A stretch of 64,000 nucleotides of DNA from a virus: IMG/VR virus record IMGVR_UViG_3300045988_115142. One strand, 5' to 3'. A program made the translations under genes and the position numbers. The stretch's first letter is position 1. The number at the start of each line of letters is the position of its first letter. Below, in pieces: positions 11,482 to 43,931 of the stretch. The notes beneath the pieces were generated by a model. That model had not been told where the DNA came from, searched no databases, and saw only the letters and a list, made by a program, of their open reading frames with translations.

Positions 11482-12666
11482 ATGATAGAATTAAGTCAAG
11501 AACAAGAAAGAGTTGTTCAAGCCGCCGTTGATTTTTATCATAATTCATCAGAACAAGTATTTCAATATTCTGGCAAAGCCGGAACAGGTAAATCTGTTGT
11601 TATGATGGAGATAATTCGACGTCTAGGCTTAATGCCAGAAGAGGTTGCACCTATGGCATATATAGGTGCCGCCGCTATCGTTCTTAGAACTAAAGGGTTA
11701 ATGAATGCTAAGACAATTCATTCATGGCTCTTTGAACCTAAGTGGGAATATGATTATGATAATATAGACCCATATTTCAATAGACCAAAAAGAAGATTGG
11801 TATTTGTACCAACTCCTCTTATTGGTAAGAAGTTGATATGTATAGATGAAGCAGGTTCTGTTCCATATTCTCTTAAGAAAGAAATAGAATCTCGTGGAAT
11901 TAAGATTATTGCCGCAGGAGATTTAAACCAATTACCTCCTGTAGCAGATAGACCAGCATACTTATATGATGGTAAGGTTCATGTGCTCAATACTATTATG
12001 AGACAAGCTCAAAGTTCAGCGATTGTGTATCTTGCAGACCGTATTTTAAATAATCAACCAATCCATCGTGGATTGTATGGTGATGTAAACGTAATCTATG
12101 AAGATGAATTACATCCAGATATGTTTAAAGTAGCAGATATTGTAATCTGTGGTCGTAATAAAACAAGAGAACGTTATAATCGTTTTATGAGAGAGCTCTG
12201 TGGTATAGATCCTATGCTTAAGATACCAGCTTATGGTGAACAATTGATTTGTCGTAAGAATAACTGGTTAAGATCTGAGCATGGTATCAGTCTAGCTAAT
12301 GGTTTAACCGGTAGAGTAATCAATGAACCGTCTGTGTTGGGAGTATCTTCTGATAGTTTCCATATAGACTTTATGCCAAATCTATTCCCATCTGTATTTA
12401 GAGACTTGAAATGTGATTTCAAATACTTTAACGCCGCTTATGAAGATAAAGACATGTTTAAGAGTGGTCATTATCGTCCAGCTGGTGAATTATTTGAATT
12501 AGGTTATGCTATCACTACTCATATCTCCCAAGGTTCTCAGTTCATGAACGGTATTTATATTTCTGAATACATGAATAAGAATATCAATAGAAACTTAGAT
12601 TATGTAGGTATTACTCGATTCAGTAATACTTGCATCTATGTATTAAAATCGAAGAAGTTCTATTAG
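11482..12666 (+). CDS. SF1B DNA helicase (Dda/RecD-like)
   Basis: Motifs GKAGTGKS (Walker A), IDEAGSV, AAGDLNQLPPV, AITTHISQGSQF, YVGITR. Confidence 0.85.
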   Translation: MIELSQEQERVVQAAVDFYHNSSEQVFQYSGKAGTGKSVVMMEIIRRLGLMPEEVAPMAYIGAAAIVLRTKGLMNAKTIHSWLFEPKWEYDYDNIDPYFNRPKRRLVFVPTPLIGKKLICIDEAGSVPYSLKKEIESRGIKIIAAGDLNQLPPVADRPAYLYDGKVHVLNTIMRQAQSSAIVYLADRILNNQPIHRGLYGDVNVIYEDELHPDMFKVADIVICGRNKTRERYNRFMRELCGIDPMLKIPAYGEQLICRKNNWLRSEHGISLANGLTGRVINEPSVLGVSSDSFHIDFMPNLFPSVFRDLKCDFKYFNAAYEDKDMFKSGHYRPAGELFELGYAITTHISQGSQFMNGIYISEYMNKNINRNLDYVGITRFSNTCIYVLKSKKFY

Positions 12667-12678
12667 GGAGTGAAATAA

Positions 12679-12990
12679 GTGGAGCAGGAGAGATGTCCTA
12701 AATTTAGGAATGTTAAGAAACATAATCGTCTTAGATTTGTTCCTGAAAATGGTTGTACTGGTTGTAGGCATTACAATCAGTACTATAATGAGTGTAAATT
12801 TCCTTTCAAGGAATTGACTATAGCTAATATAGATTTCAAAAGGAATAAATCAATTCCTCCAAGAGAGACAACTGATATAAATAGCAAAAAAGAATTTATT
12901 ATAAATAATCGAGTATTATTAATCGGTGTATTTATAACCTCTTTTGTTTTAACTTATATCTGGGCATTGTTTGTATACTGGAGGGACTGA
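12679..12990 (+). CDS. small Cys-rich, C-terminally membrane-anchored protein
   Basis: GTG start 8 nt after AGGGAG. Contains CPKF...GCTGCRHY...ECKF, then a C-terminal hydrophobic helix LLIGVFITSFVLTYIWALFVYW. Confidence 0.6.
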   Translation: MEQERCPKFRNVKKHNRLRFVPENGCTGCRHYNQYYNECKFPFKELTIANIDFKRNKSIPPRETTDINSKKEFIINNRVLLIGVFITSFVLTYIWALFVYWRD

Positions 12991-12991
12991 T

Positions 12992-13078
12992 ATGTTTAAG
13001 GACGATGCTAAAGTCTTTGCCCTTAGCATAATTATATTAGGTATAATTATGGCTTTTATGATAGATATTATATGGTAG
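12992..13078 (+). CDS. 28-aa hydrophobic peptide, putative
   Basis: Hand-found ORF, MFKDDAKVFALSIIILGIIMAFMIDIIW. GGAGGGA lies 5 nt upstream. Below the ORF-track size cutoff. Confidence 0.4.
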   Translation: MFKDDAKVFALSIIILGIIMAFMIDIIW

Positions 13079-13088
13079 GAGGAAGTTA

Positions 13089-13532
13089 ATGGGTCGTAAA
13101 GTAAAACAAAGACGCCATAGGAAGTTAGATTTAACTAAAACTAATTACAAAGCAACTTCCTGTGAAGATACTACAGTCGATGTAAGTACATTGACTGAGG
13201 TCAAAGAAGCTAATAAAGAGATTATGGAAAAGAAATCCAAGAAATCTCGTAAATATGATAATAATAAAGATCTACCAGCTATTCTCGAAAGAGATGTGTG
13301 CTTCGGCTTTGTCGAGCACTCTGGTAGACCATTAGCACAGCACTTCAATTCCCAAGGAATGTGCTATTGTTGTATGTTCTATGATATCAAAAACGGTGGC
13401 GGCTGTACATATCATCATGTAGAATTAGACGACAATGGTATTTCTGGTAAGAAAGTATTGAAATACGTAGTTATGATTCAATCTATCATTATAGCTGCTC
13501 TAGTTATATTCTGTATATTGGCAGTACTATGA
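13089..13532 (+). CDS. small Cys-rich, C-terminally membrane-anchored protein
   Basis: TAGGAGGAAG SD. Contains CFGF...GMCYCCMFY...GGGCTYHH, then a C-terminal TM helix MIQSIIIAALVIFCILAVL. Confidence 0.6.
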   Translation: MGRKVKQRRHRKLDLTKTNYKATSCEDTTVDVSTLTEVKEANKEIMEKKSKKSRKYDNNKDLPAILERDVCFGFVEHSGRPLAQHFNSQGMCYCCMFYDIKNGGGCTYHHVELDDNGISGKKVLKYVVMIQSIIIAALVIFCILAVL

Positions 13533-13654
13533 AAAAGACCACATTTGTATTATTCTGGCTTTTAGTGTTTATCCTGTCCAGTGTATTCTGGACATGGATA
13601 TTCAAATCCGGATATAATAAAATTCTATACGATTATATAATATCTATATGGTAG
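13529..13654 (+). CDS. 41-aa hydrophobic peptide, putative
   Basis: Hand-found ORF, MKKTTFVLFWLLVFILSSVFWTWIF.... It has an ATGA start/stop overlap with the upstream gene. Confidence 0.4.
   Translation: MKKTTFVLFWLLVFILSSVFWTWIFKSGYNKILYDYIISIW
13634..13650 (+). promoter_or_regulatory. TATATAATAT-N4-ATG motif copy
   Basis: TATATAATATCTATATG abuts hairpin 13650-13672. Lies 63 nt upstream of ATG 13713. Confidence 0.4.
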
Positions 13655-13712
13655 GGTAATATTAACTCTACCTAAAATTATATTTTTTAATAAAGAAAGG
13701 AGTAAAACACCT

Positions 13713-14252
13713 ATGCAAAAATTAACAAGAACTGACTTTATCCAACCGTTTATATTCTTGGATGAAGAAAACAAACCTATCGTTCCTTCTGAGATCAAGA
13801 AGTATCTATTACTAATTGAATTTAGTGAATCTTCTGATACTCCAGTGGAACAAGAAAGAACCTATGCAGTAATCGAAGGTCGTGGTAATGCGGCTAAAGA
13901 GATTATTAAGAATCTACCAGATCTTTATGGTGAAGATTCTATCAATTGGTTCAAATCTATGATCATCTCTGATTCTCAAAAGATCAGTGATGGTATTTCG
14001 TTCTATTCCTTTATCAGAATGCTTTTAGAAAATAATATGCTAGCCGAATCCGACTGGAATAATATTATCTTCAATGGTTCTGATGAAGGTTTTGATTTAT
14101 CTGTATGGAATGAATTCATTCTAGATAAAGCAGAGCAAATCATTGAATTAGATCCAATCGATCCTGAATTTGGTGAAGATACATATGAAGCTCGCATCGA
14201 AGCATTCTATCGTTGGGATTTGTATGGTGATGAGGAGGAAAATAATGGCTAA
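13713..14252 (+). CDS. hypothetical acidic protein
   Basis: 179-aa ORF with AAAGGAG SD. Confidence 0.7.
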   Translation: MQKLTRTDFIQPFIFLDEENKPIVPSEIKKYLLLIEFSESSDTPVEQERTYAVIEGRGNAAKEIIKNLPDLYGEDSINWFKSMIISDSQKISDGISFYSFIRMLLENNMLAESDWNNIIFNGSDEGFDLSVWNEFILDKAEQIIELDPIDPEFGEDTYEARIEAFYRWDLYGDEEENNG

Positions 14253-14685
14253 ACCTAATAAGAAGAATAATTATGGTTCTGCATTCTTCGACCCTTTGAT
14301 TAAATCCAAAGGTGATACCTTTATGGTAATGGAACGTCCTGAACGTTTAATGAAGAAAGTACCATTATTACTTAAGGACTTAGCATATGGAAATATTACT
14401 GAAAAGTATAATAAGTATTTCACATATGACTTCGTAACTCACATCGTAATCCCAGCATTACAAACTTTGCATTTGAATGCTTTGATTCATTATAATGCAA
14501 CCAAAGAATTCTATGAGAAATATGGTGCTCAAGATATCTTTACTGTAATGCAAACAGATGGAGAACTTCTAGCTGTTTACGATATTGCATTATCCGGCTT
14601 CAACGATATGGTAGCTTCTAATGGTAATTTAGGATACTTGATTAGTATGGGTGTAAAATTAAAGCAGTATAAATTTATAATTTAA
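14245..14685 (+). CDS. hypothetical protein
   Basis: Track frame 14170..14685. ATG 14245 (MAKPNKK...) has GAGGAGGA 5 nt upstream and an ATGGCTAA overlap with the upstream stop. Confidence 0.65.
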   Translation: MAKPNKKNNYGSAFFDPLIKSKGDTFMVMERPERLMKKVPLLLKDLAYGNITEKYNKYFTYDFVTHIVIPALQTLHLNALIHYNATKEFYEKYGAQDIFTVMQTDGELLAVYDIALSGFNDMVASNGNLGYLISMGVKLKQYKFII

Positions 14686-14765
14686 TTTTTAATATCCGGC
14701 TAACAATATTGTAAGAATACTCTTATATGAGTATGATGCTATTTTTATCGCATGGAGGTGAAATA

Positions 14766-15299
14766 ATGGAAAAAGCACAAGTTATCGCTCTACGAGATGC
14801 TTTCATGAGCGTCTTGAGATATAGTGAATCTCTCAAAAAGAACATTGCTGAACCACTCTGTATTCGTTTAGATAATGATGTAATCTTAAGTGGAGCTCAC
14901 AAGCATTTCATTTGGGATGATGATAACGACATTCTATTCTATTATTCTACAAATGAAAAAGGAACAGGATTCGAACCTGCTGGTACTGGACGTAAAGTCT
15001 ATGCTGGTATGTTATCCGCATCTAACTATGACAATATTCAAGAGATGTGGACTCAATTGACCGAAGAATCCTTTGGTCAATCATTAGCAGTATTGAAAGC
15101 TAAATTCCCATCTGCTCATGGTGTTGGTGATGGTGCTAAAGTAATTCCAATCGATGACAATATCGGTGGTCTTATTAAAGCCGCTATCTTCGATCCATTG
15201 GATGTGAATAAACACTCTGCTTATCGTAACAACTATGCCAAGACTAAAAAACCATCTGAATTACCACTTGGTATGGTAAGCGAAGAGCTTAAAAAATAA
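14766..15299 (+). CDS. hypothetical protein
   Basis: Track frame 14727..15299. ATG 14766 (MEKAQV...) has GGAGGTG 5 nt upstream. Confidence 0.7.
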   Translation: MEKAQVIALRDAFMSVLRYSESLKKNIAEPLCIRLDNDVILSGAHKHFIWDDDNDILFYYSTNEKGTGFEPAGTGRKVYAGMLSASNYDNIQEMWTQLTEESFGQSLAVLKAKFPSAHGVGDGAKVIPIDDNIGGLIKAAIFDPLDVNKHSAYRNNYAKTKKPSELPLGMVSEELKK

Positions 15300-15321
15300 T
15301 ATAGTTAAAATGAATTATAAC

Positions 15322-15338
15322 TATATAATATCGTTATG
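15322..15338 (+). promoter_or_regulatory. TATATAATAT-N4-ATG motif copy
   Basis: TATATAATATCGTTATG, then AAATAAG, which forms the 5' arm of hairpin 15339-15357. Lies 69 nt upstream of ATG 15407. Confidence 0.4.
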
Positions 15339-15406
15339 AAATAAGAAAATCTTATTTTAAAAAATATTTTTATATTACACACATTTTTAGTCAGGAGGAT
15401 AAAACA

Positions 15407-16387
15407 ATGACTAACAATTACAACAACTTCAATCAACAACCTCAACAACCAATGATGGGTGGTTATGGCTATGGTATGGGTATGCAACCACAATGGCCAC
15501 AACCTATGGCAGCTCAAATGGCACCTCAAAACACGAATATGCCTATGAACAGCACATTGACTCAAGACGAAATCAACGCTCTTCGTAACCGTAATACTCG
15601 TGATATGGAAGCTTTCTTCCAACCACCAAAAGACTCTACAGAAATCGCACGTTACAAATGTAACCACCGTGATCACAATGGTCAATCTACATTAAGTGCG
15701 AATGCAGACGGCTCTTGCACATGTGGTATCTGCCATGAAACGTTTAATTATATTGAACCATCCAACGAAAATCGTAAAGAATTGTCCAACAACGTTCGCC
15801 ACGTAGTTTCCCAATTCAACGATATCTGGAATACAATGAAAGCTAACTGGGGCCCAATCTCTCCAGAATTGGCTGACAAATTGTATGTATTTGGCACGGT
15901 TATCGACCAATTGCCAAAAATGTGGGATAAATCCGCTGAATACATTTTGAACTACTATGGTTCCATGAATGTAGCTCAAGGTGGTTATGGTTACGCTAAC
16001 GATTACAACACATTGAATCGTTTGTCTGCAATCACAACTGGTGCTCCTATGTATGGTTATGGATACCCTGGTATGCAACAACAACAATGGGCTCCTCAAC
16101 CAGCTCCTCAAATGAATGGTGCATTCTGGAATGGTGGTTACCAACAACAACCTCAACCAGTAGCAGGTATGCAAATGCAACAACCTCAAGCTGGTGGCTG
16201 GGGTGCTCCTCAAAGCTACCAAGCTCCTGTAGCTCCAGCACAAGCTGCTCCTCAACAACCTGTAGCTAACCCTGCTGAAGGCATGGCTAATCCTATTGGT
16301 CAACAAGCTCCTGTAGCAGCTCCACAAGCTCAACCTGCTACAACAACAGCATCTGCGGCAGCGGCTATCCCTGGTTTTGAAAACTAG
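15407..16387 (+). CDS. low-complexity Q/P/G/M + aromatic-rich protein with a central Cys/His cluster
   Basis: AGGAGGA SD. The N-terminal ~45 aa and C-terminal ~130 aa are Q/P/G/M/A-rich with spaced Y/W/F. The middle carries CNHRDH...CTCGICH. NNC-biased codons suggest high expression. Strong terminator downstream. Confidence 0.8.
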   Translation: MTNNYNNFNQQPQQPMMGGYGYGMGMQPQWPQPMAAQMAPQNTNMPMNSTLTQDEINALRNRNTRDMEAFFQPPKDSTEIARYKCNHRDHNGQSTLSANADGSCTCGICHETFNYIEPSNENRKELSNNVRHVVSQFNDIWNTMKANWGPISPELADKLYVFGTVIDQLPKMWDKSAEYILNYYGSMNVAQGGYGYANDYNTLNRLSAITTGAPMYGYGYPGMQQQQWAPQPAPQMNGAFWNGGYQQQPQPVAGMQMQQPQAGGWGAPQSYQAPVAPAQAAPQQPVANPAEGMANPIGQQAPVAAPQAQPATTTASAAAAIPGFEN

Positions 16388-16410: not shown

Positions 16411-16436
16411 GGAAGTAGAGATTATTCTCTACTTCC
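16411..16436 (+). terminator. intrinsic terminator
   Basis: GGAAGTAGAG-ATTATT-CTCTACTTCC, then TTTTTTATC. Confidence 0.8.
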
Positions 16437-16480
16437 TTTTTTATCTTTATTTTTATCTTATTTGAAAGGGTAATAAATAG

Positions 16481-19636: not shown

Positions 19637-20710
19637 ATGCTAAACAAACAATTTAGTACTATGTCGGAAGTAGGAGACCATCTACAAAAAGTATCTGAGA
19701 TACTTACATCTTATTTTACTAGTGATGAAGTAAAAGGTAAAGAAGTTATTATTCTTCACCATACAGATATGGATGGTATTTCCGCTAGAGAGATACTTAG
19801 ATCTTTCCTTAATCAGTATACTGAATATAAGGATATCAAGACAATAGCATATAATTATGAAAAAGATTATGATTTTGCATCCTTCAATCCAGATGGATTA
19901 GATGTAATTTCGGTAGACCTTTCCTTAAAGGTAAATGATATTGAATTAATATCTCAGGTTAGTCATAGATTTATTATGACAGACCATCACGCTACATCCA
20001 TTAGGCAGTTTGGTAGTACCAGCGACCGATTATTACGTATAGTCAAACCTAATGAAGAAAGTTCTGATAATGAGTTCAAGACTCTTGTGTTATTAGATAC
20101 TAATAGATGTGGTGCTAAAATCGTTTATGATGTGCTTAAGAAAACAAAATGTCCAGATAATGGTGACTATGCAATGAAATTGCTACGTCATTTTGGAAAT
20201 ACTTTTGATCATATTAATCCAGTTACAGTGAACCTAATTGACCAATACGATAGATGGGTATATACCGATAATGATCCTGTCTACTTGAATGAATATTTTT
20301 ATGCTAGTAATAGAGTAAGAATGCCAGATAATGAATTCTATTTCCTAGGGATCCTTACAGAATTAGACGTTAGTGGATTCTTGAAGATTGGTAGGGATAT
20401 CTTTAATGCTAAGAGAATAATTAGTGATATTCAAGCAGATAATTTCACTCAACCAACTAATATCACTATTGGTGGTAGAACATACTCAGTTTGTCGAGCA
20501 TTTGGTTTTACTAACTCTTTATCCTTCGGTGATAAAATGAAAGAATATGATATCTGCGAAAGTATCAGATATTATGATCAAAAGACTGGACGATATACAG
20601 TTTCTCTTTATACGTCAAACCCCGATATAGATGTAAGCAGAATTGCAGAACTATTTGGTGGTGGAGGACATCCTGGTGCCGCTGGGTTCTGCTCAACAGA
20701 ATATATCTAG
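19637..20710 (+). CDS. DHH/DHHA1-family phosphoesterase (RecJ/NrnA-like)
   Basis: Motifs HHTDMDGISA, VDLS, MTDHHAT, and the DHHA1 motif GGGGHPGAAG near the C-terminus. Confidence 0.85.
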   Translation: MLNKQFSTMSEVGDHLQKVSEILTSYFTSDEVKGKEVIILHHTDMDGISAREILRSFLNQYTEYKDIKTIAYNYEKDYDFASFNPDGLDVISVDLSLKVNDIELISQVSHRFIMTDHHATSIRQFGSTSDRLLRIVKPNEESSDNEFKTLVLLDTNRCGAKIVYDVLKKTKCPDNGDYAMKLLRHFGNTFDHINPVTVNLIDQYDRWVYTDNDPVYLNEYFYASNRVRMPDNEFYFLGILTELDVSGFLKIGRDIFNAKRIISDIQADNFTQPTNITIGGRTYSVCRAFGFTNSLSFGDKMKEYDICESIRYYDQKTGRYTVSLYTSNPDIDVSRIAELFGGGGHPGAAGFCSTEYI

Positions 20711-20728
20711 ACAAAAGAGGTTTTATTA

Positions 20729-23422
20729 ATGATTAAACATATTGAAAAACGTGACGGGAGTATTGTTGAATTTGACCGTACTAAAATTTTAAATGCAATT
20801 CTTAATGCTATGAATTCTGTGGGTGCTGTAGATGAAGAAGCAGCCAACAATACAACCACAGCTGTAGTTCGTAATTTAAATAAATTAGATTCCGATACAG
20901 CTGCTGTAGAAGATGTACAAGATTTAGTTGAAGTTCAATTAATGAAGAAATATCCAGACGTTGCTCGTGAATATATCACATACCGTAAACGTCGTAATGA
21001 TATTCGTACAGCTAAAACAGAAACAATGAAAGAAGTTATGAGTATTCTTAAATGCGAAGACGTCAAAAACTCTAATGCTAACGTTGATGAATACTCCTTT
21101 GGTGGTCGTAAGAAAGAAGCATCTGATGTAATTCAAAAAGAAATTGCATTGAATACTCTTATCGACCCAGACATTGCTGAAGCTCACCGCAAAGGTATTC
21201 TTTACATTCATGACTTATCTGAATATGCAGTAGGTCTTCATAACTGTTTGAATGCCGATATTGCTTATTGCTTAGCTCATGGTTTCGAAGCTCGTAACGG
21301 TGGTGTCCGTCCAGCTAATTCCTTTGCAACAGCATGTCAATTAATTGCAGTTATTTTCCAAATTCAATCCCAATGTCAATTCGGTGGTATTGCAACTACT
21401 AAGATTGACTTTGACTTAGCTCCATATGTACGTATTTCCTTCTTGAAACATTTCAAACGTGGTTTACGTTACTTTGGTACAGGTGTTGGTAACGATTATG
21501 ATACATTCGTATCTAAATATGGTAAAGATGTAGTCAATACAGCATCCATCGAAGCTGATTGGAATATCTTCAAAGACTTCTGTACTCCAGCATACATTTA
21601 TGCTTTAGAAGAACTCGAACGCGAGGGTAAACAAGGTGCTCAAGCACTTTATCACAACTTAAATACTTTAGAATCTCGTGCTGGTTCTCAAGTACCATTC
21701 ACTTCCATTAACTTTGGTTTAGATACTTCTTGGGAAGGTCGTAAAGCTACACAATGGATGATGAATGCATCTCTTGATGGTATTGGTATTAACCATACTA
21801 CTTCCATCTTCCCTATTTCCATCTTTGTTTATAAGAAAGATGTAAATGACCGTCCTGGTACAGACAACTATGATTTGAAGAAACTTGCTATCAAATCTTT
21901 AACTAAACGTATTTATCCTAACTTCGTAAATGCTGATTGGCAATCCAATGTTCCAGATGTACACCCAATTCGTATTGTAAATAAAACAGTATTCCATCCA
22001 ATTGAATCTGAAGTAACTTTACGTATTGACCATCATGTTGGCGAAACTAAAGTATTTGATCCATTGAACTTCAAGAAAACTTTAGTAAGCGATTATGACA
22101 AACTTACTTTGAAACGATTGATTAATTCTATTCCTGAAGAATATGTATCTGCTCCAGATGAAGATGGTATCCAAGTAATAGATCTTCGCTTCACTGATAG
22201 ACGTTATTTGATTAAAGATTCAACTTCTAAATTCAATAAATACAATACTGATCGTAATGATCATTATACTAAATTGAATTGGTTAGCTGTAGATACAGAA
22301 ACTAATGAAGTAGCAATCACCACAGAATCTTTCAATTACGATATCGAATGTACTGAAGAAGAAGGTCCTTACAAAGCTAAAGTACTTCGTACAATGCAAC
22401 TCCCTAAACCTGAATACAATAACGATACAGAAATGTCTACCATGGGTTGCAGAACGCTAGTTGGTTATGACTTACATGGTATGGGTTATCAAAAGACTGG
22501 TCGTGGTAACTGTACACCTGTAACTATTAACTTAGCTCGTATTGGTATTCGTCATGGTATTTGCTTAGGTGAACGTAAAGAAGCTGATATTGATGGTTTC
22601 TTCAAAGAACTTGACGAAATCTTGGAAATGTGTGAACGTGAACTTCTTAAACGTTTCGAACACATCTGTTCTCAAGATATTCGTTCTGGTTTCTTCACTT
22701 ACCATAACCATGTAGCTGCTGATACCGAAGCTGCTCTTGAGAAGGGTTCCATTTATGAAACAATGAGACACTTCTCTCAAGCATTAGGTTACATTGGTGT
22801 GGCTAATATGTGCTATGCTATGTTTGGTAAATACCATAACCAAGATAAAGACGTATTGAAATTCGCTGTATCTGTAGTTAAACATATTGCAGACTATGCT
22901 GATGAATGCAAGAAACGTCATAACTTGAACTTCGCAGCATATGCTACTCCTGCAGAATCAACTTGTTTAACTTTAGCTTCCAAACTTCAAAAAGAATTTG
23001 GTAAGATTAAAGGTGTATGTGATCGTGAGTACTTAACTAACTCCCATCATGTTCCAGTATATGAAAACATTTCCGTTCGTGATAAAATTGATACAGAAGC
23101 TGAATTCTCCATCTATCCAACAGCTGGTTGTATAATGTACGCTGAAATGTCCTCTGGTGTAATTGGTAATCCTAGAGCAGTAGAAAAGATTATTGATTAT
23201 GCTATGGCTGACACTCGTGTTCCATACTTCGCTATCAACTTCCCAATCGATAGCTGTGATGATTGTGGATACACTGGTGAAATCAATACAGATACTTGCC
23301 CAGTTTGTGGTTCTACTAATATCAACCGTTTACGTCGTGTAACTGGTTATATTACTACAGACTATCGCAAATTCAACAAAGGTAAATTCTGTGAAGTTAA
23401 TGACCGAGTAAAACACATTTAA
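20729..23422 (+). CDS. nrdD: anaerobic ribonucleoside-triphosphate reductase (class III), with N-terminal ATP-cone and a ~164-aa internal insertion
   Basis: ATP-cone IEKRDGSIVEFDRTKI, active-site STMGCR, C-terminal Zn site CDDCGY...CPVCGS, and glycyl-radical motif RRVTGYIT. Confidence 0.93.
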   Translation: MIKHIEKRDGSIVEFDRTKILNAILNAMNSVGAVDEEAANNTTTAVVRNLNKLDSDTAAVEDVQDLVEVQLMKKYPDVAREYITYRKRRNDIRTAKTETMKEVMSILKCEDVKNSNANVDEYSFGGRKKEASDVIQKEIALNTLIDPDIAEAHRKGILYIHDLSEYAVGLHNCLNADIAYCLAHGFEARNGGVRPANSFATACQLIAVIFQIQSQCQFGGIATTKIDFDLAPYVRISFLKHFKRGLRYFGTGVGNDYDTFVSKYGKDVVNTASIEADWNIFKDFCTPAYIYALEELEREGKQGAQALYHNLNTLESRAGSQVPFTSINFGLDTSWEGRKATQWMMNASLDGIGINHTTSIFPISIFVYKKDVNDRPGTDNYDLKKLAIKSLTKRIYPNFVNADWQSNVPDVHPIRIVNKTVFHPIESEVTLRIDHHVGETKVFDPLNFKKTLVSDYDKLTLKRLINSIPEEYVSAPDEDGIQVIDLRFTDRRYLIKDSTSKFNKYNTDRNDHYTKLNWLAVDTETNEVAITTESFNYDIECTEEEGPYKAKVLRTMQLPKPEYNNDTEMSTMGCRTLVGYDLHGMGYQKTGRGNCTPVTINLARIGIRHGICLGERKEADIDGFFKELDEILEMCERELLKRFEHICSQDIRSGFFTYHNHVAADTEAALEKGSIYETMRHFSQALGYIGVANMCYAMFGKYHNQDKDVLKFAVSVVKHIADYADECKKRHNLNFAAYATPAESTCLTLASKLQKEFGKIKGVCDREYLTNSHHVPVYENISVRDKIDTEAEFSIYPTAGCIMYAEMSSGVIGNPRAVEKIIDYAMADTRVPYFAINFPIDSCDDCGYTGEINTDTCPVCGSTNINRLRRVTGYITTDYRKFNKGKFCEVNDRVKHI

Positions 23423-24364: not shown

Positions 24365-24871
24365 ATGAAATTTGAAAAAGTCTCTTTAAAAACTTTCATA
24401 CAAGAAGTACGAGAATCGTACTTATGGAAATACAGAGAGTATACTGATGAAGAATTAGAAATCTTCTATAATCGAATTCAACTTCCTGAAAGATCTACAG
24501 CTGGTTCTGCAGGATATGATTTCGTAAATCCATTCAATACAATTGAACTAAATACGACTAATGTAGAAATTCCTACTGGTATTAAAGTACAACTAGATCC
24601 AGATAAGATCTTGATGTTAGCACCACGATCTTCATCCGCAAGAAATGGTTATATGTTCTCTAATACTTTAGGTATCATCGATAGTGATTACTACAACAAT
24701 CCAACTAACGAAGGTTGTATTAGAGTATCTCTTAAAGCTATGGGCACTAGTCATCCTATATTCGACTATGGTGATAAAATTGCTCAAGGTGTTATTTTAC
24801 AATACTTTACAACTGAAGATGATAAAGCTACTGGTAAACGTACTGGTGGTCATGGTTCTACTGGTAAATAA
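24365..24871 (+). CDS. dut: dUTP pyrophosphatase (trimeric dUTPase)
   Basis: Motifs AGSAGYD, PRSS, GIIDSDY, GDKIAQ, and C-terminal RTGGHGSTG. Confidence 0.92.
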   Translation: MKFEKVSLKTFIQEVRESYLWKYREYTDEELEIFYNRIQLPERSTAGSAGYDFVNPFNTIELNTTNVEIPTGIKVQLDPDKILMLAPRSSSARNGYMFSNTLGIIDSDYYNNPTNEGCIRVSLKAMGTSHPIFDYGDKIAQGVILQYFTTEDDKATGKRTGGHGSTGK

Positions 24872-31950: not shown

Positions 31951-32037
31951 TTTATTATCCTTTATTACAAAATATTTATCGAAAGGTGGCTGAGTTATTA
32001 AAAGTACGATAAAGGATTGTCTAAAGGAGGAAATACG

Positions 32038-32775
32038 ATGTATAAATTTTTAGAAAAACACAAAGGATTTATGACTAGATTTCTTTGTATTATAATAGCC
32101 GCATTATTGGTATCTAACGTATTCATGTTAGAACGTGCCAGTGCACTTGAAATGAAAATACAAAGTGCTCAAGAACAGATTGAACAACATGACGAATATA
32201 TTAGCAAGCATGTTGAAGAAATAAAAGAAGTTACTAAAGCACAACAAACTGTAAAAAATCATATCGATGCAATGACAAAACATGAAGATGCTATCAATGC
32301 CATTAAAGGTGGTTATGGATACGATTCAGACTTATCAAACAACAACCCATCTTCTCTATTAACAGCTGATGATATGAATAAGATCATCAATTACTGGATA
32401 GAACGGAGAGGTGTATCTAAAGAGTTTGCTGGTAAAGGACAAGCTTTTATCAATGCTTCTATTCAAACAGGAATGAACCCTATCTATATTCTAGCTCATG
32501 CAGCTGCAGAATCTGGTTGGGGTAGTTCTCATTTGGCTAGGACTCGTCACAATTATTTCGGTATCAATGCAGTAGACCAAGATCCTGGTAGAGCTTCTAC
32601 AATGGGTGGAAGTTTAGAAGAAGGTATTACTGCTGGTGCTGATTGGATTAAGCGTCATTTCTATAACAATGGTTATACTTCGCTTAGATCTATGAAACAT
32701 GGTAATTATGCTACCGATCCTAAATGGGCTGGTAATATTTTACATATAATGAATGAAAGTGTTTCAGTATTGTAG
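32038..32775 (+). CDS. peptidoglycan hydrolase, N-acetylglucosaminidase domain, with N-terminal membrane anchor and coiled coil
   Basis: AHAAAESGWGSSHLARTRHNYFGINA matches the glucosaminidase/FlgJ-type signature. TM helix FLCIIIAALLVSNVFML. ATG 32038 follows AAAGGAGGA. Confidence 0.8.
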   Translation: MYKFLEKHKGFMTRFLCIIIAALLVSNVFMLERASALEMKIQSAQEQIEQHDEYISKHVEEIKEVTKAQQTVKNHIDAMTKHEDAINAIKGGYGYDSDLSNNNPSSLLTADDMNKIINYWIERRGVSKEFAGKGQAFINASIQTGMNPIYILAHAAAESGWGSSHLARTRHNYFGINAVDQDPGRASTMGGSLEEGITAGADWIKRHFYNNGYTSLRSMKHGNYATDPKWAGNILHIMNESVSVL

Positions 32776-32789
32776 AAAGGAATTTGAAA

Positions 32790-33941
32790 ATGCTATTAAA
32801 TGCAAAAGTAATTGGCATTGGTGCAGCTGGTAACAAAGCTACTATTGCCTTATTTAAGAAATATCCTGAGATTGCTAAGGATATGGTTTTAATCAACTCT
32901 ACGTTAAAAGATATTCCAGAAGAATATCATGACCGTGCTATTGAATTAGATGGTGAATATCGTGGTTGTGCTAAAGAACGTACAATTGCTAATCAAATGA
33001 TGGTAGATACTCTTAAGAGTGGTCATTTCGAATATGAAAAAGACCCTAAAGATTGTATGACTATCATTGTTACATCTTCTGAAGGTGGTACTGGTTCTGG
33101 TGCATCTGTACTTCTAGCAAACTACTTGCACAAAGTACATGGTACACATATCCACTTCTTCGTATTCACTGGTTTTGAAGACGACGTTCGTGGATTAAAA
33201 AATACAGTAGATCTATTCAAAGAAATGGATGATAGCTTTACAGTAGAAGCTTTATCTAACAAATCTTTCTTAGAAGCTGCTGGTAATAATCGTTTACGTG
33301 CAGAACAATTAGCAAATGAAAAGTTTGCTGATAACGTAAACATCTTATTAGGTGGTACTATTAATAAATCTTCTCAAAATATTGATGAATCCGATTTGTT
33401 AAAAACTGTACGTACACCTGGTTTTATGTATATTGACCGTGTCAATATGACTAAAATCAAAAACTCTGATGATTTCAACCGTCGTATTACTGAAGTAATT
33501 GATGATATGAAATCTTTAGAAACCCAACCATCTGCAAAGCGTATCGCTACAGTTCTTGATGTAAAAGAACGTGCATTAGAATTCATTGACTTTGGTTATG
33601 AAGTTATTAAGAAACGTTTTGGTATGCCTTTCGAAGCATTCTCTCATGTGCAAGACTTACATGAACCTGAATACTTAGATATTATTGTATCTGGTTTGAA
33701 AATGCCTATCAATGAAATCGAAAAGACATACGAAGATTTCAAAGAACGTTCTAAGTTTGTAGATACTACAGCTGATGACTTCTTCAACAAAGAATATGCT
33801 ACTAATGCAGATATCTTTGATACACTTCAAGCAGATGCAACACCGGCAGATGTAGACGCTGCCAAAGATGACTTCTTTAAATCTCTTGGTAAAGATAAAA
33901 AAGAAGAATCTAAGAAAATTAAAGTTGTACAAGACTTTTAG
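32790..33941 (+). CDS. tubulin/FtsZ-superfamily GTPase (PhuZ/TubZ-like)
   Basis: G1 motif KVIGIGAAGNKA, tubulin signature SSEGGTGSGAS, and T7-loop-like QNIDESD. Long acidic/amphipathic C-terminal tail. Confidence 0.85.
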   Translation: MLLNAKVIGIGAAGNKATIALFKKYPEIAKDMVLINSTLKDIPEEYHDRAIELDGEYRGCAKERTIANQMMVDTLKSGHFEYEKDPKDCMTIIVTSSEGGTGSGASVLLANYLHKVHGTHIHFFVFTGFEDDVRGLKNTVDLFKEMDDSFTVEALSNKSFLEAAGNNRLRAEQLANEKFADNVNILLGGTINKSSQNIDESDLLKTVRTPGFMYIDRVNMTKIKNSDDFNRRITEVIDDMKSLETQPSAKRIATVLDVKERALEFIDFGYEVIKKRFGMPFEAFSHVQDLHEPEYLDIIVSGLKMPINEIEKTYEDFKERSKFVDTTADDFFNKEYATNADIFDTLQADATPADVDAAKDDFFKSLGKDKKEESKKIKVVQDF

Positions 33942-37154: not shown

Positions 37155-38426
37155 ATGGCAAAAGAAGTTACTGTATACAACAACGATGTAGATTATCAAT
37201 CATCTTTAGCATACGAATTCAGAAATGTAGTATCTAAAGATAAAGATCTTCGTATGTCTTCTGAAGCTAAAATTGATATTGGATATCCAACTGGTTTCTT
37301 GGGCTTTGACTTCATGAATGGTTACAAAGTTCATAATAATGGCGAAACTAAATACAACCTAGGTATCTCTGATGGTAGTATGGTAATGGTAATTGGTCGT
37401 TCTGGTTGTGGTAAATCTACATTCTGTACACAAATGGCGGCTAACATTGTACGTCCATTCAAAACTTCTACAATCTTCGAAGATTCTATCGAAGGTGGTA
37501 TGGTTAAAGAACGCCGTATGCAGTTAAGTGGTTTCAATACAGAAGCTGAATATAAGAAACGTTTTGTAATTCGTAATACTGGTATTACAGCAGAAACTTT
37601 CTTAGCTCGTATTAAATTCATTCATGATTTGAAATTAGCAGATCCTGAAAGATATAAATACGATACTGGTTATGTAGATGAAGAAGGAAACCCAATCAAA
37701 TTATTTGAACCAACGGTTTATATCTTAGACTCCATTGCTTTGATTATGCCAGATGATTTGGTAGAAGAAGGCGAAGTATCTACCAACATGTCTGTTACTC
37801 GTACAGCTAAAGTTGTAACTGATATTATTCGTCGAGTAGTACCTATGCTTAAAATGGCTAATATCATTTTAATCGTAGTAAACCATATCCTTTCTGATGT
37901 ATCTATTCGTCCTAAGAAAGCTGACTTAATGTATTTGAAACAAGGTGAATCTTTACCTCGTGGTAAAACTGTAATCTATCTTTCTAATACAGTAATTCGG
38001 TTAGATGATACTAAACTTAAAGCAGACGAAAAGTTCAAAGTAGCTGGTTCTTTAGTAGATGTAACTAATACTAAGTCTCGTTCAGCTGGTGCTGGTCAAA
38101 CTTCTACAATGGTATTTACTTATGACCACGGTTTTGACCCAGAACTTTCTTTATTTATGCTATTACAAAACAATGGTCGTGTAAACGGTGCTGGTATTGG
38201 TTACTACTTTGATGACCATACTGACTTCAAATTCTCTTTGAAAGGTTTCAAAGAAAAACTTCGTAAAGATCCAGAGTTCTATAAGCTCTTTATGGAAGTA
38301 GCTAAAAGTGAATTAGAAAAATTGCCTTCTAACGCAAACGATATAGTTGATGTAGATGAACAAGATCAAAACGAAAGTAATAATGTTACTTCTGATATTC
38401 TTGGTACAATTGGCATCAAATATTAA
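37155..38426 (+). CDS. RecA/UvsX-family recombinase
   Basis: Walker A GRSGCGKST, Walker B VYILDSIA, and a RecA-like IILIVVNH ... TKSRSAG layout comparable to T4 UvsX. Confidence 0.75.
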   Translation: MAKEVTVYNNDVDYQSSLAYEFRNVVSKDKDLRMSSEAKIDIGYPTGFLGFDFMNGYKVHNNGETKYNLGISDGSMVMVIGRSGCGKSTFCTQMAANIVRPFKTSTIFEDSIEGGMVKERRMQLSGFNTEAEYKKRFVIRNTGITAETFLARIKFIHDLKLADPERYKYDTGYVDEEGNPIKLFEPTVYILDSIALIMPDDLVEEGEVSTNMSVTRTAKVVTDIIRRVVPMLKMANIILIVVNHILSDVSIRPKKADLMYLKQGESLPRGKTVIYLSNTVIRLDDTKLKADEKFKVAGSLVDVTNTKSRSAGAGQTSTMVFTYDHGFDPELSLFMLLQNNGRVNGAGIGYYFDDHTDFKFSLKGFKEKLRKDPEFYKLFMEVAKSELEKLPSNANDIVDVDEQDQNESNNVTSDILGTIGIKY

Positions 38427-38494: not shown

Positions 38495-40945
38495 ATGGCA
38501 ACATCACTTAATTTAATTCAAGCCGCAATGGAAAAACAAAATGCTTATCCAAGTGCGGAATATGTAATTGGCAAATCGTTACAACAGCCAGCTACTAATA
38601 CAAACTCTGGTCCTCGTAAACTCATGTATGGTTTACAGGCAGAACAAACTATTCAGATCTCGAAGCCAGAAACGCCTTTAATGGCTACTGGCTTTGAAGG
38701 TCAATTTGCTGAGTATTCCAGCAACTATATTATTGCCGAAGACGACTATGAAGTCATTGACAAAGTATATAAAAACAAAATGATGTATTGGATGTTCGTT
38801 AGAAATACTAAAACAGGGAAAGTCGACGTATTCGCTAGAACAACTTATGAATACATCACAGAAATGTATGGCTATGAAATGAATACAGAATATATTGATG
38901 CGTTAACTCCAGGTGATATAATCCCTAAGAACTCACCAATTATTCTACCAGATTCATTTGATAGTGCATTAAATGCAGGTACTGGTGTAAACTTAACTTG
39001 TGTTTACATGGCATTAGCAGAAACTACAGAAGACCCAGTGGTCTTATCTGAATCTGCAGCTCGTAAACTTACTGCACCTACCTACAAAAACGTAGAAGTC
39101 ATGGTCAATGATAATGATATTCTACTAAACCTTTATGGAGATGAAACAGGCAACTATAAATCTTTCCCAGATATTGGTGAAGAGGTTAAACATCGTACAC
39201 TCTGTGCTCTTCGTAAAGAAAAGAAAGAGGATGAAGCACTCTATACACAATCGGTACAGATGCTTAAAGAAAGGCTACAATCCGATACTGCTTTCCTCGC
39301 AAATGGTACTGTTATAGATATCGATGTATATTGTAACAATACAGAATATGATAATCCACAAATCGAGAAATACTATAATAAAACTTTAGAATATTCTCAA
39401 AAGATTGTGGATATTCTAGAAAAGGAAAAACGAAAAGGTTATACACTTACTAGTGAAGCTGACAGATTGCTTTATAACTCCAAGTCTATTCTTGAAGGCA
39501 AGCCTTATATGACTAAAGACAAAGTATTTACTAACTTAGTAATCAACTTTGTAGTCAAAGAAGAAAAGCCTATGGAGCAAGGTGATAAATGTACAGACCG
39601 TTATGCTGGTAAAGGTGTAGTATCTTACATATGGCCGGACGAAGAAATGCCAATGTATGAACGTAATGGTGAATTATTCCCAGTGGATATCATCTATAAC
39701 TCTTCTACAATGGTTAACCGTCAAAATCCAGGACAAACATTCGAAACTGAAATCAACTATGTATCAGATCGCATAGTAGAAAGAATGCGTAAGATGTATT
39801 ATGGAGCTTCTGAACTAAATAGATCAGATATGGTTCCAGAATGCGAAAATATGATTCTTAAGTTTATGAATGTAGTAAATCCTGAAGAAGCATTCTTCTA
39901 TAATGAACAAATTATGGAATATGGATTACAAGAACGTGAGTTCTTCTTACAATCTGTAATGGCAGACAATGCTTTATTCTTAGTTTGTAAGCCAATATCT
40001 GGTAATATCAACTTAACTACTTTGTATAATTTATATACTGAGTTTCCTTGGGTTGAATTAGATAAACTTTGGGTAAAACAAAAATGTTCTGATGGTTCTT
40101 ATAGACGTATTCAAACTAATCGTGGTGTTATCACTGGAAAAAAGTATATCTATAGATTGAAACAAATTGCAGAAGAAAAATTCTCTGCTGTATCTTTAGC
40201 GTCTACTAACTTACGTGGTGAAAATACTAAGACTAGAGCTCATAAACAACACAGAAGTGTACATTCTGACACTCCTGTAAGATTAGGTGCAATGGAATCA
40301 TCTAACTTATTAGATGCTGCCGATGTATCAATGAGATTAGCTATTGTATTTATGCTACTTTCATCTTCATTCAAATACAGACGTCAAGCTTATCAATTAT
40401 TGGTAGGTGATCCATTTAAACCATATATCAAACTTGATGCAGAAGCAAACGTATTGGCAACATCACGTTCAGCTGAGATTGCTAAAGTATTGATGAAAGC
40501 TATTGGTCTTAAGATCAACTTCAATAAGACAAAGAAGATGTATAAAGCACCAGTACTTCTTAATGTATTTGAACAACTTCCAGATATCAATAATCCATAT
40601 TATAGATATGGGTGTTATGATCAAGACATTGTTCAATCTCCAATTATTCGTATGCCATTCTTTGTTAAGAATGAAGATATGGATAGATTGGTTAAGTTGT
40701 ATAAGAAACACCATAAAGATGAATTGCTTATGAGTCCAATTAACTTCAATGGTGTTGATAATATTATCGATGCAGATATTATCAATAAAGTAATGACATT
40801 GATTAGTACTTGTGAAAATATGGATGAAGCTGAAGCAGCAGTTAAAGCTAAGACTCCAGAACCATTAGCAATTCCAATGCATGTAATGCCTGTTATTAGA
40901 ACCGGAGGCGAAAGATATGAACCAACGTCTAATAACAATTCTTGA
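38495..40945 (+). CDS. multisubunit RNA polymerase beta subunit, C-terminal half
   Basis: SGPRKLMYGLQAEQ matches NRALMGSNMQRQA. GVNLTCVYMALAETTEDPVVLSES matches GQN..VA.M.W.GYN.ED...SE. GDKCTDRYAGKGVVSYIWPDEEMP matches GDK..GRHGNKGV.S...P.EDMP. NRQNPGQTFE matches SRMN.GQ..E. VRLGAMESSNLL matches QRFGEMEVWAL. Confidence 0.88.
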   Translation: MATSLNLIQAAMEKQNAYPSAEYVIGKSLQQPATNTNSGPRKLMYGLQAEQTIQISKPETPLMATGFEGQFAEYSSNYIIAEDDYEVIDKVYKNKMMYWMFVRNTKTGKVDVFARTTYEYITEMYGYEMNTEYIDALTPGDIIPKNSPIILPDSFDSALNAGTGVNLTCVYMALAETTEDPVVLSESAARKLTAPTYKNVEVMVNDNDILLNLYGDETGNYKSFPDIGEEVKHRTLCALRKEKKEDEALYTQSVQMLKERLQSDTAFLANGTVIDIDVYCNNTEYDNPQIEKYYNKTLEYSQKIVDILEKEKRKGYTLTSEADRLLYNSKSILEGKPYMTKDKVFTNLVINFVVKEEKPMEQGDKCTDRYAGKGVVSYIWPDEEMPMYERNGELFPVDIIYNSSTMVNRQNPGQTFETEINYVSDRIVERMRKMYYGASELNRSDMVPECENMILKFMNVVNPEEAFFYNEQIMEYGLQEREFFLQSVMADNALFLVCKPISGNINLTTLYNLYTEFPWVELDKLWVKQKCSDGSYRRIQTNRGVITGKKYIYRLKQIAEEKFSAVSLASTNLRGENTKTRAHKQHRSVHSDTPVRLGAMESSNLLDAADVSMRLAIVFMLLSSSFKYRRQAYQLLVGDPFKPYIKLDAEANVLATSRSAEIAKVLMKAIGLKINFNKTKKMYKAPVLLNVFEQLPDINNPYYRYGCYDQDIVQSPIIRMPFFVKNEDMDRLVKLYKKHHKDELLMSPINFNGVDNIIDADIINKVMTLISTCENMDEAEAAVKAKTPEPLAIPMHVMPVIRTGGERYEPTSNNNS

Positions 40946-43247: not shown

Positions 43248-43260
43248 TATATTATAGATG
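43248..43260 (+). promoter_or_regulatory. variant motif TATATTATA-N1-ATG
   Basis: TATATTATAGATG. The ATG end forms the 5' arm of stem 43257-43263/43281-43287. Confidence 0.3.
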
Positions 43261-43334: not shown

Positions 43335-43931
43335 ATGAAAGACTATCAAGCTAGTTATAGCGAAAAGTTTAAAGAAGCATTAAGAAAGTTTAATGACTCT
43401 GCAACAGCATTGTACTTCGTAGTACAAACATCTACAAGTCATGACTACGAAGATCCATTCACAACAGTAACTGTGTACAACAAGAAGAAAAATACAGATT
43501 GGGAAGCTACACTCTTATCCGAGTTCTGCTCCGATCCTAATAAAGATCTTATTGCTACATATCAAAAAGTTTCACTCACCACCAAACCTGGTAAGGAATC
43601 TATAAATATTACTGTAATTAAAAACGTCATTGGTTTTGGTATTGCTACAAGCTTAGAACAAGTAAACGAAATCATCACTTATATGGAAGCAGATAATCGC
43701 GATCTTCGTAAAATCTATTTCTATGATTATGATTTGGTCATTCAAGAACTTGTACCACCTAAAGCTTCTGATTTAATTGCAACTAAACCAAACTTTAGTC
43801 AACCAATTAATGGTGCTTATGGTACAATCACCACCTTCAATTCAGGAACAGCAGATACTGACAGTGTTGTTGATAAAACCGAGAAAGTACCGCTTCAACA
43901 AGTCGGTTCTATCCCTGGTTTTGAAGGGTAA
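43335..43931 (+). CDS. hypothetical protein ending in IPGFEG
   Basis: Track start 43260 runs through a hairpin. ATG 43335 follows AAGGAGGA. Confidence 0.7.
   Translation: MKDYQASYSEKFKEALRKFNDSATALYFVVQTSTSHDYEDPFTTVTVYNKKKNTDWEATLLSEFCSDPNKDLIATYQKVSLTTKPGKESINITVIKNVIGFGIATSLEQVNEIITYMEADNRDLRKIYFYDYDLVIQELVPPKASDLIATKPNFSQPINGAYGTITTFNSGTADTDSVVDKTEKVPLQQVGSIPGFEG

Follow-up and report, generated by a model that had tools for sequence, protein, structure and literature searches.

The window analysed here, a stretch of 64,000 nucleotides from the IMG/VR virus record IMGVR_UViG_3300045988_115142, encodes at 15407-16387 a 326 amino acid (aa) protein that belongs to a large family of phage proteins. 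In this protein a small folded core with a zinc (Zn) ribbon lies between two nearly uncharged prion-like tails, and the longer, C-terminal tail ends in a short peptide that recurs at the end of a second protein of the same phage. In the libraries we examined the family is undescribed, as are its fold and its regulation, while the working principle, a disordered linker with a docking tip and possible condensation, is already known. We tentatively favour, at somewhat less than even probability, the interpretation that the protein is an abundant early hub of the phage replication and nucleotide-metabolism/early-gene module, built from an interaction core, prion-like tails and a shared docking tip.

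According to this interpretation transcription of the gene by the injected virion RNA polymerase (RNAP) would start at an AR9-type early promoter and yield an insulated, monocistronic unit, which would then be translated efficiently. The small acidic core of Zn ribbon and helical hairpin would serve as a protein-protein interaction module, probably a homotypic one, and the two charge-free disordered tails would supply weak multivalent contacts through Tyr, Trp, Met and Gln. The long C-terminal tail would act like the disordered linker of SSB, the single-stranded DNA-binding protein of bacteria, with conserved short motifs followed by the docking tip AIPGFEN, and because this tip is common to at least one other early phage protein both would bind the same partner. 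The net effect would be that phage replication and early factors are concentrated in one place, possibly in a condensate-like assembly. Self-association of the protein is probable, and condensate formation or phase separation is possible.

Architecture of the protein and its family

The open reading frame (ORF) translates into exactly the sequence that had been quoted in a first-pass annotation of this DNA. Its N-terminal tail (residues 1-46) is free of charged residues and consists to 20% of Q, 17% of M, 15% of N, 15% of P and 11% of G (Q+N 35%), with five aromatic residues (11%). The C-terminal tail (residues 216-326, 111 aa) holds two charged and ten aromatic residues and is composed of 22% A, 21% Q, 16% P and 12% G (Q/A/P/G total 71%; Q+N 25%). 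It is divided into a proximal zone rich in Y/W/G/M/Q (YGYGYPG...GGWGAPQSYQAP) and a distal zone of P/A/Q/V without aromatics, in which the motif NPIG is found at 16289-16300 (residues 295-298). Residues 47-215 show an ordinary composition. Among all ORFs of the window the protein had a low-complexity score of 36, the next-best ORF reaching 13, and it contains four [G/S]Y[G/S] triplets. The prion-like composition claimed by the first-pass annotation was thus confirmed for both tails, which are uncharged and rich in Q/N/G/Y/M/P. The disorder expected with it was also found: AlphaFold2, run with an 85-sequence alignment, gave a predicted local distance difference test score (pLDDT) below 50 at residues 1-42 and 212-326. 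Both tails therefore represent long, uncharged, Q/N/G/S/Y-enriched regions of predicted disorder as described for prion-like or FUS-like proteins. The further statement that such a composition is very unusual for a phage protein was overstated, since prion-like domains turned up in thousands of phage proteins when these were surveyed with PLAAC, replication proteins, Erf and SSBs among them (PMC5694896). A resemblance to FG domains did not hold up either: there are no FG, GLFG or FxFG repeats, only one FG and one GF dipeptide occur in the whole protein, and the main aromatic residue is Tyr.

The reading frame is kept through both tails in homologues of 25-30% identity. Ten natural alleles showed 68 synonymous versus 5 non-synonymous codon variants, the ratio being 16:3 for the tails and 52:2 for the core. 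The conserved frame and the excess of synonymous variants in the tails indicate that the tails are translated and constrained, and strong purifying selection acts on tails and core. The ORFs on the opposite strand at 15305-15685 and 15692-16333 are by-products of a low-complexity coding sequence poor in stop codons.

The middle of the protein, which had been described as a normal-looking helical segment, is a folded core with pLDDT >90 over most of residues 47-188. AlphaFold2 placed helices at residues 53-61, 77-84, 123-147, 153-160 and 162-183 and a two-stranded ribbon at 96-106, with beta strands predicted at 96-98 and 104-106. The potential zinc knuckle of the first-pass annotation proved to be right in part: C85, H87, C106 and C109 form a real Cys/His site and are invariant in alignments of 12, 85 and 113 members, whereas H90, C104 and H110, which had been included in it, are not conserved among homologues. 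The core is acidic, with a pI of 5.5 in the target protein and a family median of 5.3. A consensus-like family member (P0034, modelled with 113 sequences) gave the same fold with disordered tails. A Foldseek search of the PDB with the two core models yielded no match with E<0.5 and no SSB, and a profile search of PDB sequences gave generic Zn-finger noise only (E>=0.04). In BFVD, searched with one model, the matches were two uncharacterised family members from uncultured 'Myoviridae sp.'; their automatic names, 'Rad50 zinc hook motif' and 'Zinc-finger double domain protein', were given no weight. As modelled, the core is a new fold without an informative structural neighbour.

A profile search of 1.84 billion representative sequences recovered 1046 clusters (50% identity) at E<=1e-3 and 757 at E<=1e-10, so that the survey of homologues in related phages suggested by the first-pass annotation revealed a widespread family, whose gene is syntenic in eight lineages. 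The target protein had no Pfam match at E<=1, and for the target and 85 family members Pfam and PHROGs returned nothing beyond generic Zn-ribbon noise. PADLOC gave no informative match. A tblastn search with the target and the consensus-like member against 50,697 phage records (INPHARED) found no relative in a cultured phage, and no close relative of the target protein is encoded in GTDB genomes. The family marks a diverse clade of uncultured phages of about 250 kb that occurs in hundreds of metagenome assemblies, some of them apparently human-associated.

All parts of the protein recur across the family. The order within the core is a '(N)TQPLTxEQIxKLR' helix, a Zn ribbon 'CTHK..NG.S.L...DG..C.IC' and a helical hairpin with 'D.LQT.K'. 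N-terminal tails have medians of 24 aa, 0% charged residues, 19% aromatics and 71% Q/P/A/G/M/N (Tyr 13%, Met 11%), and C-terminal tails have medians of 92 aa, 4% charged residues and 73% Q/P/A/G/M/N. The composition of the tails is tight over 196 members, with 3-5% charged residues and 68-77% Q/P/A/G/M/N. Most members form a main subfamily with the tip G-E-V-Q-Q-x-K-[VT]-F-N-V, in whose tails the motifs NP[MF]xY..P and PAPGVMP recur on inspection of tail sequences and consensus. The subfamily of the target ends in ...IPGFEN (...TPGFQA in P0129) with a conserved NPIG before the tip; this NPIG is kept in the distant subfamily members P0010 and P0129. One member of 436 aa (P0029) was considered as an informative fusion and rejected, its extra C-terminal domain being unrelated and the sequence likely an assembly chimera.

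Table 1. Features of the target gene and of further genes in the window (positions are those of the window).
Feature	Position	Strand	Basis
Coding sequence, 326 aa, unannotated phage protein family	15407-16387	+	profile search, codon variants
N-terminal prion-like tail, residues 1-46, N/Q/G/Y/M/P-rich, contains GGYGYGMGM	15407-15544	+	composition, pLDDT <50
Folded core, residues 47-215: TQPLT-type helix, Zn ribbon, helical hairpin	15545-16051	+	AlphaFold
Zn ribbon, C85-N-H87 ... C106-G-I-C109	15659-15733	+	invariant residues
C-terminal tail, residues 216-326	16052-16384	+	composition, AlphaFold, family tails
C-terminal tip AIPGFEN, putative docking peptide	16364-16384	+	invariance, sharing
Early-class promoter-like motif AACTATATAATAT-CGTTAT-G	15319-15338	+	AR9 consensus match
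Shine-Dalgarno sequence AGGAGGA, 7 nt before ATG	15393-15399	+	read from sequence
Intrinsic terminator: 11-bp stem, 4-nt loop, T-run	16411-16446	+	-28.4 kcal/mol, z = -6.4
ATAWTAT-N4-RTGR motifs	4256, 10769, 13637, 15325, 23428, 38443, 40597, 43249, 60010, 63917	+	pattern search
198-aa protein, fold unassigned: folded N-domain, variable linker, tip ...GSIPGFEG (43908-43928)	43335-43931	+	
dUTPase	24365-24871		
RecA/UvsX-like ATPase, weak	37155-38426	+	weak match
NAD-dependent DNA ligase	40917-43244	+	
GroEL-like chaperonin	57394-59196	+	

Expression signals and genomic setting

The early promoter of AR9, which is used by the injected virion RNAP, has been defined experimentally as AAATATATATTAT-(6N)-G(+1) (PMC5312081). 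The motif upstream of the target gene contains this AR9/phiKZ-type element (ATATTAT with a start G 6 nt downstream) and predicts a transcription start at G15338 and a 5' untranslated region of 69 nt. The pattern ATAWTATNNNNRTGR (ATAWTAT-N4-RTGR) occurred ten times in the window, always on the plus strand, versus 1.67 times expected (a 6-fold enrichment), and none of 100 shuffles reached ten. These sites lie mostly 27-69 nt upstream of start codons, one of them before the gene for the non-virion RNAP beta subunit at 38495, and they are a candidate early-promoter set equivalent to the virion-RNAP promoters of AR9. All of the seven lineages had exactly one ATAWTAT-6N-G at a distance of 53-147 nt upstream of the family gene, the background being 0.06 per 250 nt. 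TATATTAY, the early element of phiKZ, was tried as a promoter and dropped, since its 28 occurrences compared with 26.7 expected. No late-promoter motif was recognised upstream of the structural genes of the window.

Signs of high expression had been noted in the first-pass annotation, and they withstood closer analysis. The target gene carries a consensus Shine-Dalgarno sequence and a strong terminator (Table 1), its NNC/(NNC+NNT) ratio is 0.56, and all eight of its Arg codons are CGY. A Shine-Dalgarno sequence of the AGGAGG type was found in five of the six lineages compared (AAGGAG in the sixth, L019), and a GC-rich hairpin directly 3' of the stop codon in six of six. Among about 55 genes of the window a comparable codon bias was seen only in 52641-54587 (+), whose 648-aa product matches 'Major structural protein ORF12' (PDB 7x30, E 2e-10), and in 55934-56644 (+), whose 236-aa product had no match anywhere. 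Taken together, promoter motif, Shine-Dalgarno sequence, terminator and codon bias predict a gene that is early, insulated and heavily translated, from which we infer an abundant protein with early timing.

In eight lineages the family gene was found in the same order of genes. A divergent DnaB comes first, followed by a minus-strand gp53-like gene, a Dda/PIF1 helicase and between two and five small ORFs; then come the target homologue and GyrB. Two loci, L006 and L007, are an exception in which other genes than GyrB follow the family gene. The lineages compared share only about 25-35% identity. The nearest cultured relatives of the source phage are of the AR9/PBS1 type (GyrB 28% identical), and AR9 has the same gene backbone and annotated early promoters with no counterpart of the target gene. 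The RNAP beta-like gene at 38495-40945 (+) encodes a product 34% identical to AR9 gp088, the C-terminal half of the non-virion RNAP beta subunit; its locus is syntenic with AR9 gp085-gp088, and the AR9 homologue lies downstream of an annotated early promoter.

This setting also bears on the idea that the protein is a virion component, whether internal, ejected or decorating, with tails for packaging or ejection and a tip that targets capsid or scaffold. Its codon bias is in the range of the gene for the major structural protein, the opposite strand carries a baseplate gp53-like gene close by, and encapsulin cargo proteins are known to carry targeting peptides at the ends of disordered linkers. 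The early-type promoter motif is, however, shared with the non-virion RNAP gene and kept in all seven lineages, the flanking genes are replication genes, and no similarity to any virion protein family was found. A collagen- or fibre-like structural protein, which the first-pass annotation had named as the alternative that would overturn its proposal, is unlikely for the same reasons and because repeats are missing: G-X-Y periodicity is absent from the translation, and Tandem Repeats Finder (TRF) reported only trivial arrays on the gene (about 2-2.6 copies with periods of 9-13 nt) and no tandem-repeat structure. We regard a role in the virion as very improbable.

The C-terminal tip and its likeness to known systems

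The tip of the target protein is shared with a 198-aa protein encoded at 43335-43931, just after the gene for the NAD-dependent ligase and behind an early-type motif at 43249. The two proteins end in ...QQVGSIPGFEG (198-aa protein) and ...SAAAAIPGFEN (target), so that IPGFE stands equally far from the C-terminus in both. When the C-termini of the 174 ORFs of the window were all scanned, the 198-aa protein was the sole outlier, with a tip score of 29 versus 14 for the next best. By chance, two of about 70 proteins would be expected to share IPGFE in this register ~3e-5 times. In relatives of the target with 78-88% identity IPGFEN is invariant while the residues preceding it vary. Eight strain variants of the 198-aa protein (72-93% identical, versus 97-100% for the target protein) have clearly different versions of a linker of about 30 aa, and G[ST]IPGFEG is invariant in them. 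A tip that is shared, and invariant despite a changing linker, is characteristic of a short linear motif that one common partner recognises, which makes the 198-aa protein a candidate co-client of the same docking partner.

Weaker echoes of shared peptides were seen twice. A 96-aa ORF at 47289-47579 (+) ends in ...GEIKNNPIGSK and recalls the NPIG of the target (chance expectation ~0.008). When tip sharing was looked for in other lineages, the only candidate came from L004, where a 172-aa protein with an acidic disordered tail ends in ...AIFNV and the family member in ...KVYNV (expected 0.02).

There is a precedent for tip sharing in phage T7, where the C-terminal tails of gp2.5 and gp4 both bind the polymerase. 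The C-terminal Phe of these tails was essential according to Ghosh et al. 2009, as cited in PMC9917605. In T7 as in the phage studied here, one short C-terminal peptide is common to two different proteins of early or replication function; the tails of T7 are short and strongly acidic, whereas the linker of the target is long and uncharged and that of the 198-aa protein is variable.

Bacterial SSB resembles the target protein in having a folded domain followed by a nearly uncharged linker of about 100 aa, rich in Q/P/G/A with scattered W/Y, and then a conserved hydrophobic tip (...DIPF, i.e. DDDIPF, in SSB versus ...IPGFEN in the target), and the target likewise lies among replication genes and is apparently abundant. 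It differs from SSB in lacking the OB (oligonucleotide/oligosaccharide-binding) fold (PF00436; PF08804 in gp32) and any detectable homology, in its core of acidic Zn ribbon and helical hairpin, in its extra prion-like tail at the N-terminus and in a tip without acidic run, the tip of the main subfamily being ...EVQQxK[VT]FNV. Under physiological conditions E. coli SSB undergoes phase separation, and the resulting condensates serve as stores of SSB-interacting, that is tip-binding, proteins (PMC7584906).

The likeness might go further if the protein were a non-canonical single-stranded DNA (ssDNA)-binding protein, with a core that coats ssDNA and a linker and tip that recruit the replisome as in SSB, T4 gp32 and T7 gp2.5. 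The position within the replication module, the predicted early and apparently abundant expression and a linker-plus-tip composition near that of the E. coli SSB linker would all agree with such a function. We found no Pfam match to an OB-fold SSB in window positions ~5,400-64,000, although this search for a canonical SSB took in just 64 kb of a genome of ~255 kb. The phiKZ/AR9-type 'group 1' jumbo phages have been set apart from group 2 phages with a classic OB-fold SSB (PMC7824862). One family member weakly matched an SSB PHROG (E 0.0085) and one the RPA70-C Zn-ribbon Pfam (E 0.006), but these matches are explained by low complexity or generic Zn ribbons. Neither of the two AlphaFold models of the core, made up of Zn ribbon and helices, contained an OB fold or beta-barrel, and there was no sequence or fold match to gp32, SSB or gp2.5. 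The core offers few conserved basic or aromatic surface candidates, its predicted acidity speaks weakly against ssDNA binding, and the acidic run of SSB tips is missing. Overall, we consider ssDNA binding by this protein unlikely.

The prion-like tails invite comparison with the FET family (FUS/EWS/TAF15), which shares with the target uncharged Q/G/Y-rich low complexity, [G/S]Y[G/S] triplets and a small Zn-binding domain. The Met-rich low complexity is reminiscent of yeast Pbp1 and of TDP-43. The target differs from FET proteins in lacking RRM, RGG and homology, in its shorter tails with clustered aromatics and in its bacteriophage context. Among phage proteins, SPO1 Gp27 (PMC13401047) and ChmC of chimalliviruses (bioRxiv 10.1101/2023.09.22.559000) have been reported to form condensates in infected cells and are phage-encoded condensate drivers. 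The role proposed here for the target is of the same class, but the phages differ: SPO1 relies on the RNAP of its host, and ChmC comes from phages that form a nucleus. Neither protein was among the profile or fold hits of the target, which were not supplemented by a direct sequence comparison.

Several results weigh against the hub interpretation. The core was assigned as an interaction module by exclusion, given that no informative structural neighbour was found, and the codon bias could also fit a virion protein. The 198-aa candidate co-client had no Pfam, PHROG or PDB match. AlphaFold docked no tip onto the core in either model, the tip having a pLDDT of ~50. The aromatics of the C-terminal tail are clustered near the core instead of evenly spaced: when the variance of their spacing was compared with 500 shuffles per tail in 142 family tails, the mean z was +0.54, with 32% of tails above +1 and 4% below -1. 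The even sticker-and-spacer pattern envisaged by the first-pass annotation therefore gives way to a tail consisting of a sticky Y/W/M/Q zone next to the core, a P/A/Q spacer free of aromatics and a tip, and not of a uniform sticker-and-spacer polymer.

This clustering, which argues against a tuned liquid-forming design, would suit a protein that acts as a soluble adaptor in monomeric form, or as a small regulator with a Zn ribbon (of gyrase or RNAP, for instance), and whose tails are merely flexible, protease-resistant spacers. Zn-finger proteins of the YacG type regulate gyrase and coiled-coil Zn proteins of the DksA/TraR type regulate RNAP, and the family gene adjoins GyrB in the lineages other than L006 and L007, in which it does not. 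Regulators are, however, rarely expressed at the level of structural proteins, and tail composition (Tyr 13% and Met 11% of the N-terminal tails) and tail motifs are kept family-wide beyond what a spacer needs. A purely soluble adaptor is in our view quite unlikely.

Tandem cores in bacteria and the wider phage context

Three of the top family hits (P0032, P0028 and P0124) consist of two or three cores in tandem without long tails. P0032 has two cores and was found on 19 contigs (L026 8001-9014), and P0028 has three (L028 2306-3727); both come from contigs with 39% GC that look cellular, and a PP2C-Sel1 gene immediately precedes each of them. The operon in L026 and L027 has the order TPR/Sel1, Pkinase (Ser/Thr kinase), VWA, PP2C/Sel1 and tandem-core, all on the plus strand with gaps of 15-85 nt (1316-9014 in L026), and in L028 PP2C/Sel1 is again followed by the tandem-core gene. 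The bacterial homologues thus belong to operons with the vWA, PP2C and Ser/Thr kinase genes of the TerY-P triad, and the phage gene of the window lies outside such an operon. Further genes in L026 encode an ABC transporter, a mad3-like protein (9e-69) and PDC-S01 (8.5e-147), three others weakly match LeoA/LeoBC GTPase models (E 1e-10 to 1e-13), and the locus ends in a fragment of a Phd-family antitoxin gene (weak Pfam match). The vWA and PP2C proteins of the operon matched no PADLOC model, and no plasmid matched the bacterial homologue. In keeping with the TerY-P triad, a kinase - vWA - PP2C set immediately precedes the tandem-core genes in a defence island; departures from the triad are a PP2C fused to Sel1 repeats and the TPR/Sel1 protein at the head of the operon.

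At the nucleotide level the P0032 gene is 82% identical to the P0203 gene (L030 9001-9846) over 400 nt including the ribosome-binding site. P0203 has one core and tails, as is typical of the family, and its gene lies in the canonical phage synteny. The identity of the bacterial cores to the P0203 phage subclade is 68-80%, compared with about 30% to the rest of the family, so that the transfer went from phage to bacterium. Between L026 and L028 both flanks are 96% identical and the PP2C proteins 94.8% identical, whereas the cassette itself shows only about 50% protein identity and two versus three core copies. A hypervariable, multivalent, phage-derived core in a signalling operon of a defence island suggests that the core is a recognition or assembly module and that the phage protein is worth targeting. 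In that operon the cassette may serve as bait, decoy or poison subunit. That bacteria keep two to three tandem cores without tails likewise suggests an interaction module whose valency matters. To our knowledge no accessory gene of phage-protein origin has been described for TerY-P-type modules. Mouse Fv1 is a host-captured, retroviral gag-derived gene that restricts virus. Here, too, a rapidly evolving copy of the gene for an abundant viral protein is retained by the host, although in a bacterial setting, as a tandemly duplicated tail-less core within a signalling operon and with a restriction that is only putative.

These loci could alternatively reflect a host-takeover or anti-defence protein, whose core or tip blocks a host factor and against which the bacterial tandem copies act as decoys or sensors. 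Candidate targets would be a kinase/vWA/PP2C immune module or a host hub that normally reads IP-x-F-type tails such as the C-termini of FtsZ and SSB, which IPGF resembles. Early, abundant and clade-specific accessory genes are typical of such functions, the gene is missing from AR9 despite the common synteny, and the bacterial copies, hypervariable between strains, lie directly behind the TerY-P-like triad in a defence island. TerY-P-like modules have been reported as antiphage systems (PMC11090510). The gene is nevertheless universal and syntenic over a very deep phage radiation (1046 clusters, ~30% identity), which fits a core function better, and the main-subfamily tip ...KVFNV is unlike those of FtsZ or SSB. 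Host takeover is, in our estimate, unlikely.

A more far-reaching version of the hub interpretation can be formulated from these cassettes. The captured core might be a hypervariable specificity cassette, an integrated decoy or bait that senses the phage hub, or the peptide tips docking on it, and triggers immunity, and the phage protein might be the self-assembling, tip-binding scaffold of a membraneless replication compartment in AR9-like jumbo phages without a chimallin shell. We consider this combined proposal doubtful. No gene for a shell protein was recognised in the 64-kb window.

The source phage has a genome of ~255 kb with 33% GC and is present in hundreds of metagenome contigs. Of the phage context that the first-pass annotation had assumed, the phage's own RNAP is substantiated by the beta-like gene, and the tubulin is only probable. 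The gene at 32784-33941 (+) showed a tubulin/FtsZ-like GTPase match below the Pfam threshold (E 5.5e-6, 27.2 bits versus a cut-off of 33) and its product had no PDB sequence match; if tubulin-like at all, it probably encodes a very divergent PhuZ/TubZ-like protein. The dUTPase of the window argues against uracil-DNA of the PBS1/AR9 kind (per PMC7824862). The endolysin at 32017-32775 (+) has a catalytic glucosaminidase domain 43-45% identical to sequences in Finegoldia magna DSM 20470 and a Finegoldia metagenome-assembled genome, and together with the 33% GC this gives a weak hint of a Finegoldia-type host.

Small genes accompany the family gene at several loci. In the window the region 13089-13654 (+), between the Dda-like helicase and the target, encodes a Cys-rich 147-aa protein with a C-terminal hydrophobic segment and a 41-aa hydrophobic peptide, which may be membrane proteins inside the replication module. 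In L004 (7879-8280), L007 (6695-7189), L018 (8939-9451) and L019 (8700-9158) the family gene is preceded, at a distance of one to three genes, by the gene for a small syntenic protein. The C-terminus of this protein is conserved, reading ...L(P/T)xY(K/R)Y... at three of the loci and ...LRNYRDYV in L019. The ending ...QYKYNI in L004 had been tried as a shared tip and was rejected, being the conserved C-terminus of the orthologous small protein in L007, L018 and L019. In L004, a distant relative, a gene with a weak NUMOD4 (homing-endonuclease-type) match also interrupts the GyrB gene (11805-15673), and the GyrA gene (20248-20930) carries an intein.

The IPGFE tip shared by two proteins provides an interaction network that is immediately testable. 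The bacterial tandem-core cassettes suggest a new route to defence specificity, the borrowing of the target's own domain, and they point independently to the target protein as a major weak spot of the phage. Should the hub or condensate interpretation be true, the protein would show how jumbo phages with their own RNA polymerases and a tubulin-like protein organise early replication, and would offer a compact bacterial-virus model of prion-like domains acting together with a docking peptide.

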